Below are positions 25,001 through 28,662 of a DNA stretch of 64,000 nt, in pieces. The translations under genes and the position numbers were made by a program. Location of the stretch: contig OZ242326.1 in the NCBI GenBank assembly GCA_965208325.1, forward strand, positions 4,643,649 to 4,707,648, read 5' to 3'. The notes beneath the pieces are model-generated. The model saw nothing but the letters and a program-made list of their open reading frames with translations, searched no databases and was not told the origin of the DNA. Each line of letters opens with the position of its first letter. Positions within the stretch are counted from its first letter, which is position 1. The DNA is from Candidatus Poribacteria bacterium (lineage in GTDB: Bacteria > Poribacteria > WGA-4E > PCPOR2b).

Positions 25001-25771
25001 TTAATCCGAAGTCTTCAAGGCGGCCCACGTAATGGCAAGTTTACTTTTCGGAGAGACGGCGGTACCTCCTCCCTGAAAAAATTGCATAATCTCGTCGGCC
25101 GATAAGGCTCGATTCCAGATGTGGAATTCGTCCAACACGCCCTCGAAGTTCTGTTGCCTTGGATTACCCGCCGCTAAAATCCCCATGTCTCCGAAATACA
25201 TCGGCTCCGAAGTGAGGATAATCGGTCCCATATCCGGCTCTGTGTGAATTGCAACGCCATCAAGGTACGACGTGCTTGCCGTTGGGGAGTGTACCCACGC
25301 GCAGTGATGCCATTGTCCCCAATCTGCCGCATATGGAGAAAAAGTAAATCCCGGTCCGCCGCCCCAGTGGAACCGCCAGCCCGGATCTTCTTCAAGGATG
25401 TACCACTGAATTCGGTTGACTTTATCCGACTTATCCATCATTGCACCTCGGCTAAGCGGTTTTGCCCAATTTGCCACAGTGAACGAACCGTCGGCACCGA
25501 AGAAGTCGTTGGAATGAGCGACGGTCACTTTCGTATCGTCCGCAGGGGAGAATTCCAATGCGTATCCACCTCCTTGGGCATCAGTTGTCCAAGTAGCGCG
25601 TTCAACCGTACCATCATGCCCGCCGATTTCATCACGGGCAACGCCGCCCTGTCCTTCGTCAAATGACCATTTGCCCACCAACCCGTCAGTAACAGCAGAG
25701 AACGCATTGGAATACAAAAACGCGATCGCAACAATTACCATCAACGCTGTGCACCATTTCTGTTGTTGCAT
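25001..25771 (-). CDS. Secreted LamG-like jelly-roll protein with C-terminal AVxP..TW..K tail
   Basis: Signal peptide; GLVGKWSFDEG, QWHHCAW, FEGVLDEFHIWNRALSADEI; tail TAVSPKSKLAITWAALK. Confidence 0.88.
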   Translation of the reverse strand: MQQQKWCTALMVIVAIAFLYSNAFSAVTDGLVGKWSFDEGQGGVARDEIGGHDGTVERATWTTDAQGGGYALEFSPADDTKVTVAHSNDFFGADGSFTVANWAKPLSRGAMMDKSDKVNRIQWYILEEDPGWRFHWGGGPGFTFSPYAADWGQWHHCAWVHSPTASTSYLDGVAIHTEPDMGPIILTSEPMYFGDMGILAAGNPRQQNFEGVLDEFHIWNRALSADEIMQFFQGGGTAVSPKSKLAITWAALKTSD

Positions 25772-26168
25772 TATTTTTTCCTTTCTTGAAACGAACCAGA
25801 TGGTATCGTAAGTTATGTGCGACTCAGATTACTCTTTCACACTATTTCAAGGTTTTCCAGTGTTAGCACAGAAGAGACACAACAATGGTTATGATTGGGT
25901 ACCCTCGACCAAAAAACCAACTGTGACCATTTACGCGGTGATACTAGCTATTGCGGTGAGAATTTACCCCCTTTCTCTCCACCACTCAGACTTTGAGGGG
26001 CAAAAGGGGGAGGAAGAAATGGCTGGACTTAACCATTTCAAGTCATTTTAACCGAATTCAGCTTTAATCAAAATTTATTTATGAATCCTCTAATTAATCC
26101 TCCGCTCGGTTTTCTGATGTAAGAGCGCTCGCAGCAGAACGGGAAAGAATACTACGGTATTGCTCGCA

Positions 26169-26939
26169 TTAATTCCTCGTTTTCACGGCTGCCCACGTCA
26201 TTGCCAATTTCTTGCGGGCAGAGACAGCGAGAATCTGATCGATACCCTTGTCGTACACTTCAGCGACTTCATTGGCAGATAATGGGCGGTTCCAGAACCC
26301 AATCTCGTCAATAATGCCCTCGAAGTTCTGTTGCTTGGGATTATTGCCGGGGAGGACTCCCATGTCTCCGAAGTACATCGGCTCACCGGTGGGGACAAAT
26401 TTGCCCAGTCCCTTCTGGCTGTGAACTTCTTCTCCGTTGACATAGGCAACACTTTCATCAATCGGATCGTGTGACCATACGACGTGGGACCATTCTCCAA
26501 ATTCGACTACGGGGCCATCGGAAAAGGTGAAGTTTGGACCGGCACCCCAATGTAGTCGCCCATCTTCCATGAGAAACCACTGGATTCTATCTGCCCGACC
26601 AGACTTATCCATCATTGCGCCGCGGCTCATCGGCCTTATCCAGTTCGCAACGGTTAATCCGTCCGGGAGTTCATCAAGATCCTTGTCATCTTCAACACGT
26701 ACTTTTGTATCATCTTGCGGCACGAATTTAAGCGCGGTGCCCTTAATTGCATTATCTGTCCAATCGGCACCCTCAACCGTTCCATCATGGCCGCCGATTA
26801 CATCGCCGGCTACCTTGCCTTCGCCCTCGTCAAAGGACCAATAGCCAATCAAACCATCTAAGACATCACAGAACACTAAGGGCTGAATTGCAAGCGCTAC
26901 TAGGGCGACTACTGTTGCACAGCGTACGCATCGTTTCAT
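26169..26939 (-). CDS. Secreted LamG-like jelly-roll protein with C-terminal tail
   Basis: ATG 26939 after an AAAGGAG RBS; GLIGYWSFDEG, FEGIIDEIGFWNRPLS; tail LAVSARKKLAMTWAAVK. Confidence 0.88.
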   Translation of the reverse strand: MKRCVRCATVVALVALAIQPLVFCDVLDGLIGYWSFDEGEGKVAGDVIGGHDGTVEGADWTDNAIKGTALKFVPQDDTKVRVEDDKDLDELPDGLTVANWIRPMSRGAMMDKSGRADRIQWFLMEDGRLHWGAGPNFTFSDGPVVEFGEWSHVVWSHDPIDESVAYVNGEEVHSQKGLGKFVPTGEPMYFGDMGVLPGNNPKQQNFEGIIDEIGFWNRPLSANEVAEVYDKGIDQILAVSARKKLAMTWAAVKTRN

Positions 26940-27027
26940 GACTAGCTCCTTTCTCAAAATTAAGAGTTGTTGCCCTGGACGAAGTTAAACATCAGTTTTT
27001 TGCGAGCTTTGCTCCACTCAAGGATTG

Positions 27028-27801
27028 TTAATTGTGCACCTTCACCGCCGCCCATGTCATAGTCACTTTACTGCGGGGGGAAACGGCAAGAATTGTGCCA
27101 ATCCCCCTCTCAAAGACTTCGCTGATTTCCTTCTCAGATAAGGGACGATTCCAAAATCCGAAGTCGTCCATGATTCCTTCGAAATTTTGTTGTTTTGGAT
27201 TTCCGGCGGCTATAACCCCGCTTCTTCCGAAGATCATCGGTTCGCCGGTTGGAATAGGCGCCCCCATGTTCAACTCTTCATGGAATATCTCACCGTTTAC
27301 ATACACGACGCTCAATTCGGCCGAATGTGACCATGCGACGTGGGACCACTTTCGAAAGGATACAGGATTTTCGCTAAAGGCAAAATTGGGCCCGCTACCC
27401 CAATGAAGGCGTCCATCGTCAAAGAAGAACCACTGTATGCGTAAATGGTTGCCCCCAGACTTATCCATCATTGCGCCTCGACTCACCGGCCAGATCCAGT
27501 TCGTCACCGTATGACCATCTGGAAGATTATCAAGAACTTCGGCATCCGGAACCACAATTTTCGTATCCTCTTCAGGCGAGAATTGCAGCGCCCATTTTCC
27601 GGACTTCGCTCTGTCGGTCCAAGCGGCGCGTTTAATGGATCCATCATTTCCGCTAACCAGGTCGTGAGCCACGTCTCCCTCTCCTTCGTCAAACGGCCAG
27701 TAACCGACTAGTCCATCAATGATGTCAGCGGCGAAAATGCTGGTGTGGACAGCGAGTCCAAGAAGTGTTATCAACACAGCACAACATTTTTGTCGTTTCA
27801 T
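27028..27801 (-). CDS. Secreted LamG-like jelly-roll protein with C-terminal tail
   Basis: GLVGYWPFDEG, FEGIMDDFGFWNRPLS; tail LAVSPRSKVTMTWAAVK. Confidence 0.88.
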   Translation of the reverse strand: MKRQKCCAVLITLLGLAVHTSIFAADIIDGLVGYWPFDEGEGDVAHDLVSGNDGSIKRAAWTDRAKSGKWALQFSPEEDTKIVVPDAEVLDNLPDGHTVTNWIWPVSRGAMMDKSGGNHLRIQWFFFDDGRLHWGSGPNFAFSENPVSFRKWSHVAWSHSAELSVVYVNGEIFHEELNMGAPIPTGEPMIFGRSGVIAAGNPKQQNFEGIMDDFGFWNRPLSEKEISEVFERGIGTILAVSPRSKVTMTWAAVKVHN

Positions 27802-27915
27802 GACTTTGTCCTTTCGCGAAATGACGGATTGACATTCTCACCGCGCCGCCGCACTAAAGTGCCGGCCTCGTGAAGAACCCGGTTTTTGCAACATTCACTT
27901 TGCGCAGGCACCGAT

Positions 27916-28662
27916 TTAACGCATGTGTTTGATTTTCCCCCAGGACGTCGTCATGGCGCCGATGGGTGAGACAGCGATTGGTTCTTCAAACAACTCCAAC
28001 ATCTCGCTGTCAGTCATGGCACGATGATACCACCTGTGTTGGTCCATTATGCCCACGAACGCGGCATGCCCTAGATTCCCGAGTCGCCAATAGTCGTTTG
28101 TCTGGTCGAGCGAAGGTACTTCCAAGTTCTCGGCAACGCGCACCCCGTTGTGGTACATTGCGGCGCCTGATCCGGTCGAATAAGTCAAAGCCATATGGAG
28201 CCACTCGTTTAATGCGGCCGGCGGTTGCTCTTTCGCATCTGTACCCCACCACCGCTTACCGGAACGCACCTCAAGCCGCCCTCTTCCATACTGGAGGTCA
28301 AGGTTGAATTGGTCGTGCTTATAGGTCACTCGATTTTCTCCATCCGGATCGAGCGCGAGCGGCTTCACCCAAACACTGATGGTGAAGGCGTCTTTAGCAA
28401 CCAGTCCCTCGTCCACTGCAGCGTCAGCGAACTGATCCGGAGAGGTGAATTCGATTCCTTTTCCGATTAGTCCCTTGCTCGTTCGAGAGGCGGTGCTAAG
28501 CTTACCGTCGAATCCATTACCACTTGAATCAACTAGAACATCGCCATCGCTTTCAAATTCGTAAAAGAGAATGAGTCCGTCGCCTATGCCGGCGGCGGCA
28601 ACCGAGGCGAGGGTGAAGAGCATCAAGGAAACGCCGAACCCAAAACTTCCATTTCTCATCAT
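27916..28662 (-). CDS. Secreted LamG-like jelly-roll protein (more divergent) with C-terminal tail
   Basis: GLILFYEFE, FTISVWVKP, EWLHMALTY, FVGIMD; tail IAVSPIGAMTTSWGKIK; GAGGAGG RBS. Confidence 0.86.
   Translation of the reverse strand: MMRNGSFGFGVSLMLFTLASVAAAGIGDGLILFYEFESDGDVLVDSSGNGFDGKLSTASRTSKGLIGKGIEFTSPDQFADAAVDEGLVAKDAFTISVWVKPLALDPDGENRVTYKHDQFNLDLQYGRGRLEVRSGKRWWGTDAKEQPPAALNEWLHMALTYSTGSGAAMYHNGVRVAENLEVPSLDQTNDYWRLGNLGHAAFVGIMDQHRWYHRAMTDSEMLELFEEPIAVSPIGAMTTSWGKIKHMR

Follow-up and report, generated by a model that had tools for sequence, protein, structure and literature searches.

The window examined in our study is the whole stretch of 64,000 nucleotides between positions 4,643,649 and 4,707,648 of contig OZ242326.1 (forward strand; assembly GCA_965208325.1) of a Candidatus Poribacteria bacterium, a member of a dominant, uncultured phylum of sponge symbionts. 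Four LamG genes lie head to tail on its (-) strand at positions 25001-28662, with intergenic gaps of 397, 70 and 114 bases (Table 1), and their products end in a common short C-terminal tail, which is the element under study. All four proteins start with a basic and then hydrophobic stretch, typical of a Sec signal peptide as read from the translation, and this is followed by a body which exceeds the gathering score of Laminin_G_3 (PF13385; 27.6) with 57.4-76.8 bits. The proteins are probably binding modules. The tail forms the last 19 residues of each protein with the pattern AVS(P/A)..K...TW(A/G)..K plus three residues, after which the TAA stop codon follows; exactly three residues stand behind the conserved lysine in all four. 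The initial annotation had described such a tail on four tandem signal-peptide LamG proteins, kept even in the divergent fourth gene, and the open reading frames (ORFs), Pfam matches and checked translations bear this out: the product of gene 4 has 28% overall identity to that of gene 3 and nonetheless carries the tail. In the AlphaFold2 model of the gene 3 protein (mean predicted local distance difference test, pLDDT, 87.5), residues 2-28 form a lone helix and the beta-sandwich body lies above 90. The tail, made up by the final two blocks of ten residues, falls to 58 and 53. This model, built from a shallow alignment of 24 rows (LamG plus tail), suggests that the tail is flexible.

The genome consists of one contig of 4,707,648 bases, whose translation yielded 28,642 ORFs (stop to stop, 60 amino acids or longer). 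A hidden Markov model (HMM) of the tail was seeded from 23 carriers of a strict regular expression and then iterated, giving 70, 94, 109 and finally 116 carriers. At a domain E-value of 0.01 or less, all the 116 matches among the 28,642 ORFs are C-terminal, with no internal match, and the reversed ORFs gave 0; the motif is far beyond chance. The carriers make up about 3% of the genes (116 of about 3,855 crudely called) and are scattered over the whole chromosome in 64 arrays of 1-6 genes each. The consensus [LF]-[AS]-V-x-P-x-x-K-L-a-t-T-W-[GA]-x-[LI]-K spans about 19-21 residues, including a stub of about three residues, and its key positions are strongly conserved across the 116 tails (V 98%, P 79%, K 90%, W 100%, K 98%). 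After the final lysine there are 2-14 residues (mode 3, polar or basic) and never fewer than two (0/116), with no hydrophobic run or helix C-terminal of the motif in any of the 116 tails. A signal-peptide-like N-terminus was found in 110 of the 116 carriers, a generous figure, as the crude hydrophobicity test used a favourably chosen start codon. Lipoproteins are depleted among the carriers, a lipobox-like motif being present in 2/116 against 99/1044 of the signal- or TM-like (transmembrane-like) genes genome-wide.

Table 1. Positions of the four LamG genes, their C-terminal tails and further genes discussed in the text (window coordinates, or genome coordinates where prefixed C1)
Feature	Position	Strand	Length	Details
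LamG gene 1	25001..25771	(-)	256 aa	ORF; signal peptide, Laminin_G_3 body and tail; Pfam PF13385 E 2.6e-21, residues 79-228
Tail of gene 1	25004..25060	(-)		AVSPKSKLAITWAALKTSD; translation checked; tail HMM match E 9.8e-06
LamG gene 2	26169..26957	(-)	262 aa	ORF; PF13385 E 4.9e-18
Tail of gene 2	26172..26228	(-)		AVSARKKLAMTWAAVKTRN; translation checked; tail HMM match
LamG gene 3	27028..27801	(-)	257 aa	ORF; PF13385 E 2.5e-15; protein modelled by AlphaFold2
Tail of gene 3	27031..27087	(-)		AVSPRSKVTMTWAAVKVHN; translation checked; tail HMM match
LamG gene 4 (divergent)	27916..28662	(-)	248 aa	ORF; PF13385 E 6.3e-19
Tail of gene 4	27919..27975	(-)		AVSPIGAMTTSWGKIKHMR; translation checked; tail HMM match
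DUF6785/DUF6784 polytopic membrane protein	22721..24619	(-)	632 aa	PF20581 E 5.4e-141; PF20580 E 2.6e-27
PorU-like C25 protein, first	C1:4021620-4027895		2092 aa	About twice the NF033707 profile (1095 positions)
PorU-like C25 protein, second	C1:3715230-3721577		2116 aa	About twice the NF033707 profile

The tail is a portable tag, found at the end of proteins from at least ten unrelated body groups, and does not belong to the LamG fold as one of its strands. BLAST of the 116 bodies, each trimmed of its last 25 residues, gave clusters of 75, 28, 4, 2 and 2 members and five singletons. The 75-member cluster is the LamG cluster and includes the four window genes together with another Pfam-confirmed LamG protein; even here BLAST detects only 1408/2775 body pairs, with a median identity of 27%. 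The 28-member cluster comprises PD40 propellers (five members confirmed by Pfam), and the other representatives match 3keto-disac_hyd (DUF1080), Cohesin, DUF3108_like or no Pfam family. A weaker variant of the tail is also found on a Big_5 protein outside the 116. The initial annotation had itself named the opposite case, in which the tail would occur only on LamG domains as an integral part of their fold. The large share of LamG-type carriers (75/116) would agree with such a reading, which is nevertheless refuted: 41 of the 116 carriers fall outside the LamG cluster (PD40, DUF1080, cohesin and DUF3108-like proteins among them), the Pfam LamG model is already complete (position 150-151 of 151) upstream of the tail start in the window proteins, the LamG relatives P0019 and P0020 of a public protein collection have no tail, and the tail has a low pLDDT in the model of gene 3.

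Outside this genome, an alignment of 39 tails matches all 121 sampled Poribacteria genomes, with 44-367 candidates per genome at a first look, of which at most 68 per genome were scored. One variant of the motif, followed with a 5-row tail alignment across 185,579 species genomes (one per species), matched 269 stretches. Of these, 234 were confirmed; the best 80 of the 234 come from Candidatus or uncultured Poribacteria (78) and from sources named 'uncultured bacterium' (2), and other phyla are possible among the other 154. Among the 1.84 billion representative proteins of a library, at least 494 match at E <= 0.001, a lower bound for a very short profile. Among the best 150 of the 494 none ends at the lysine itself; 1, 2, 3 or 4 residues follow it in 14, 22, 67 and 17 proteins, respectively, and more than 14 in five. 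The expectations of the initial annotation are thus largely confirmed: a genome-wide HMM gives many matches, all terminal and mostly behind signal-peptide-like N-termini, the tail differs from LPXTG, PEP-CTERM and GlyGly-CTERM signals in having 2-14 polar or basic residues and no transmembrane helix after the motif, and it is abundant in Poribacteria. The tail is matched by no Pfam or NCBIfam model, as searched with the four window proteins, at E-values up to 0.1 for Pfam and up to 1 for NCBIfam, and with representatives of the carriers. Literature searches on Poribacteria LamG C-termini, sorting signals, type IX secretion and Por_Secre_tail returned no description of it, nor any account of a type IX system in the phylum, as the papers that name both seem to do so incidentally. 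Probably, the tail labels proteins for sorting or anchoring in the cell envelope by a mechanism not yet described.

A possible route is indicated by a second set of proteins. In this genome, 45 proteins have a C-terminal domain (CTD) of about 90 amino acids which starts with LLQNYPNPFNPETW, and one of them passes TIGR04183, the type A sorting domain of the secretion system of type IX (T9SS), scoring 27.3 bits where the cut-off is 23. Fourteen of the 45, all of them WD40 proteins, carry the tail-like AVEP....TT(L/F)GxIK directly N-terminal of the domain. At the phylum level, a DNA pattern detected the W-form of the tail directly before NYPNPFNP in 69/121 genomes (backwards control 0), and the fused sequences ...AVEPxGKQxTTWGxIKTAEVFQNYPNPFNPETW... 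occur on WD40, FG-GAP/ASPIC and other bodies. Tail and CTD are both kept in 30/30 orthologues of one FG-GAP/ASPIC protein, and no switch between tail-only and tail plus CTD was seen among the 30 of that one family. The conserved lysine always lies seven residues ahead of the N in NYPNPF. Of this genome's 45 CTD proteins, 26 have K at this position, including classes without the tail, 41 have P or I before it and 38 have T two residues after it, so that the register of the lysine relative to the CTD is fixed across all CTD classes. Since tail-only proteins typically end three residues after the lysine, they stop about where the first conserved stretch of the CTD would begin. The NYPNPF junction region is where T9SS sortases cut in the studied species. 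The AlphaFold2 model of a tail plus CTD C-terminus, from a shallow alignment of 12 rows, gives the CTD a pLDDT of 88-94 and draws the tail and everything upstream as coil below 50. This adjacency to predicted type A CTDs suggests a link of the tail to an outer-membrane or T9SS-like pathway.

The coincidence between the end of the tail-only proteins and the start of the CTD in the fused forms could also be expected if tail-only genes were CTD-deleted descendants, in which the tail is a leftover linker without a function of its own. The stub partly echoes the junction, with T commonest at K+1 and A at K+2. A remnant would, however, decay, whereas 116 paralogues, with bodies that share about 27% identity or no detectable similarity, have retained the motif, and so have 121/121 genomes. 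Further, no CTD remnant was seen in the 360 bases that follow each of the 116 genes, whose stop codons are ordinary. A leftover linker is therefore strongly disfavoured and has only a very slight probability. A hidden or split CTD and read-through of the stop codon were rejected on the same counts (CTD motif in 0/116 within that distance, ordinary stop-codon use).

Proteins with a CTD are also encoded within the window. A 1407-aa protein at 3821-8044 (-) has a T9SS type A-like CTD, and its end ...YEIPIKTALLPNYPNPFNPETW... shows the P/I-K-x-T junction without the tail. The gene at 1-405 (-), which extends past the window start, encodes a large protein with a CTD of the same type.

In comparison with known systems, the tail belongs with the C-terminal sorting tags. 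The T9SS type A CTD (TIGR04183/PF18962 Por_Secre_tail, FlgD_ig-like, served by PorU and PorV) is similarly C-terminal, present on signal-peptide proteins of many folds, devoid of a membrane helix and expanded by lineage. The differences are also clear. The tail has 19-21 residues whereas even 'short' CTDs have 60-100; it is modelled as flexible and not as a folded beta-sandwich; and the four window proteins have no match to TIGR04183 or PF18962, with no CTD downstream of tail-only genes. LPXTG/sortase, PEP-CTERM/exosortase and GlyGly-CTERM/rhombosortase signals resemble the tail in placing a short C-terminal motif on many exported proteins of a single lineage, paralogous as well as unrelated, and the few residues which always follow its key residue are as a leaving group would be. 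Unlike these tripartite signals, the tail has no hydrophobic helix or defined basic cluster, its 2-14 terminal residues are mostly polar, and no NCBIfam sorting-domain model matches it; no connection to a sortase, exosortase or rhombosortase emerged, in work that made no search aimed at one. The beta-signal of outer-membrane proteins differs in its last residue, which is F, Y or W in only 12/116 tails, R, N, E, K and D being predominant. Dockerins of the dockerin-cohesin pair are likewise portable C-terminal modules on enzymes and binding proteins, and cohesin proteins are among the tail carriers; on the other hand, a dockerin folds into a calcium-binding domain with about 70 residues, against 19 for the tail. 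The poribacterial tail abuts the CTD in fused proteins, and studied CTDs likewise have a conserved cleavage-site motif at their N-terminal edge (PMC11969387).

A type-IX-like pathway is plausible in this genome, judging by the genes it encodes. Two PorU-like proteins (Table 1) combine Propeptide_C25 and Peptidase_C25 (274 and 271 bits) with a CTD of the FlgD_ig type, and the first covers the PorU model NF033707 piecewise with 282, 105 and 44 bits, the cut-off for one protein being 420. The C25 domain is present in 61/61 sampled Poribacteria genomes, all of which except one have 2-3 copies. The PorV family is represented as well, two proteins exceeding the PF19572 cut-off of 27 with 63.6 and 29.3 bits; the better of them has an orthologue in 61/61 sampled genomes. 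This pair of conserved components is a further likeness to the T9SS. Profiling within the phylum cannot discriminate between candidates because tail, C25 protein and PorV-like protein each occur in every sampled genome. A predicted complex of the PorV-family protein (residues 40-333) with the tail received a score of 0.00 and a mark of 0.32, which speaks neither for nor against binding. Two secretins are also encoded, so that an outer-membrane route other than T9SS exists as well.

Taken with the evidence above, we tentatively favour the reading that the tail is a sorting or retention tag, which would be read by a component of the envelope and coupled to the type-IX-like pathway of the phylum. 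The tail in this proposal is a self-contained, apparently flexible short linear motif which ends Sec-exported proteins and is portable between unrelated extracytoplasmic domains. It can be envisaged in two forms. In the first, tethering would rely on the tail, which a mature surface protein keeps or presents at its C-terminus. In the second, the conserved PorU-like C25 peptidases would recognise the tail as their motif and cut there. The T9SS CTDs of Prevotella intermedia have a conserved cleavage-site motif 6-11 aa (short CTDs) or 19-30 aa (long CTDs) before Motif B (PMC11969387). Applied to the poribacterial YPNP, these distances would place a cut just after the lysine of the tail or just before its valine. 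A cut after the lysine would leave the mature cargo ending like a tail-only protein, with the tail retained for tethering; with a cut before the valine, the tail would belong to the leaving signal, and a minimal cut site is what tail-only proteins would carry. A bolder variant can also be considered, in which a PorU-like C25 peptidase cuts the tail at one of these two places and joins about a hundred lectin-like, propeller and cohesin proteins, with or without a CTD, covalently to an envelope glycolipid. The tail would then be the shortest known sortase-type signal of a diderm; we regard this variant as quite unlikely.

Several observations weigh against coupling of the tag to a type IX pathway. 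T9SS export in studied bacteria requires a CTD, and the route of tail-only proteins across the outer membrane, if they cross it at all, is left unexplained because they have none; these proteins may simply be periplasmic. In this genome, the form which precedes the CTD has L (13) or F (1) in place of the tryptophan that is invariant in tail-only proteins, and the W-form together with a CTD was found in 0/18 genomes of the window's own family, and not in this genome. The two cutting positions derived from the P. intermedia distances are opposite predictions. No T9SS component passes its curated NCBIfam cut-off in a search which left out GldL and GldN. The SprA-like protein (2188 aa) reaches 65, 57, 27 and 20 bits against 200, and SprA_N 22.8 against 27; GldK has only partial, generic matches of the FGE-sulfatase type (at most 119 bits, cut-off 350); and GldM had no match, but its control matched in no genome either. 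No machinery gene shared by the surroundings of the 64 tail arrays was found, and no reader of the tail was identified. The low pLDDT of the tail is weak evidence of disorder given such shallow alignments. Moreover, the PorU of P. gingivalis is described as cutting independently of sequence (PMC4804311), and a strict recognition motif is for this reason not expected from the known T9SS. The claim of the initial annotation that the tail is a recognition tag for an outer-membrane machine is accordingly upheld in part: the tag is portable and its adjacency to CTDs suggests an outer-membrane link, while no machine that reads it has been identified and cleavage is only inferred.

The surroundings of the tail genes bear on another explanation, in which the tail is a docking peptide. 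Similar to a dockerin, it would bind non-covalently to a receptor, for instance a scaffold, a barrel of the outer membrane or a transporter, and gather lectin-like modules there, independently of T9SS. A flexible and strictly conserved motif on many binding-type bodies agrees with this, cohesin-domain proteins are among the carriers, and the near-absence of a lipobox would fit a tethering that is not by lipid. The tail arrays also lie in what look like nutrient-use islands, with no candidate reader among the neighbours. The DUF6785/DUF6784 gene is the one directly downstream of the LamG array of the window, in the same orientation and at a distance of 381 bases; it is given here as context, and membership in a tag system is not implied. 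The DUF6785 family has 28 genomic copies, 8 of them at most three genes from a tail gene (background 8.5%, p about 0.002). It has no solved relative by sequence and no paper in our literature search, and a protein-atlas look-up gave a weak hint of OPT transporters (11% of one related cluster). PhyH, a family of Fe/2-oxoglutarate oxygenases (phytanoyl-CoA dioxygenase-like), is the most enriched neighbour, 29/77 members being no more than three genes from a tail gene (p about 2e-12). When the tail genes are taken as the starting point, PhyH is near 24% of the LamG, 18% of the PD40 and 15% of the other ones, against a chance level estimated at about 13%. This enrichment is modest from the tail side and may reflect shared genomic islands only. 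Further against docking, no receptor family has been identified, and docking alone does not explain the fixed place of the tail at the CTD junction. We consider it unlikely that the tail is a docking peptide of this kind.

Some other features of these surroundings were noted. PhyH is a hugely expanded family in this genome, with 77-98 copies depending on clustering (e.g., C1:251480-252274 and C1:47760-48386). Most of the PhyH proteins are probably cytoplasmic, because only 12/91 have a signal-peptide-like start. A role of PhyH as the hydroxylase of the lysine or proline of the tail found no support and was set aside. TIM-barrel, SDR, TPR-trypsin and FG-GAP genes also recur near tail genes. Two DUF6785 copies lie two genes upstream of PorV-family genes (C1:159519, C1:4248651). 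FGE-sulfatase-type proteins, the source of the partial GldK matches, adjoin tail arrays at C1:4439585-4440115, 3285358-3285927 and 4380526-4381008. Just upstream of the LamG array of the window, 29098-30339 and 30714-31481 (-) appear to encode a FabF-like beta-ketoacyl-ACP synthase and a FabG-like short-chain reductase, as read by eye from the translations.

A further explanation is that the segment K-L-x-T-T-W-G-x-I-K is an amphipathic element which holds periplasmic proteins on the membrane surface, as the C-terminal amphipathic helices of PBP5 and PBP6 do in E. coli. AlphaFold2 draws residues 234-256 of the gene 3 protein as helices, at a pLDDT of only 53-58; the tryptophan is flanked by lysine residues, and the scarcity of lipobox motifs is also compatible with an anchor of this type. 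Generic helices tolerate change, however, whereas W at 100%, K at 98% and V at 98% with fixed spacing argue for a specific reader. The same stretch is modelled as coil ahead of the CTD, and a helix has no need of the upstream V-x-P. An anchor on the membrane surface is hence highly improbable.

The sorting or retention tag, which we favour, would have a number of consequences for the biology of Poribacteria. A tag of 19 residues would allow the exported and tethered proteome to be listed from sequence alone and could serve as a bait for finding its reader. It also yields a testable prediction on the mature C-termini in sponge metaproteomes. The carriers are lectin-like and propeller proteins, the ones most likely to meet the host and the dissolved organic matter. 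If the tag is coupled to type IX secretion, the logic of this pathway would extend beyond Bacteroidota, with a new signal element beside the CTD. If the sortase-type variant holds, it would be a new surface-display system in Poribacteria.

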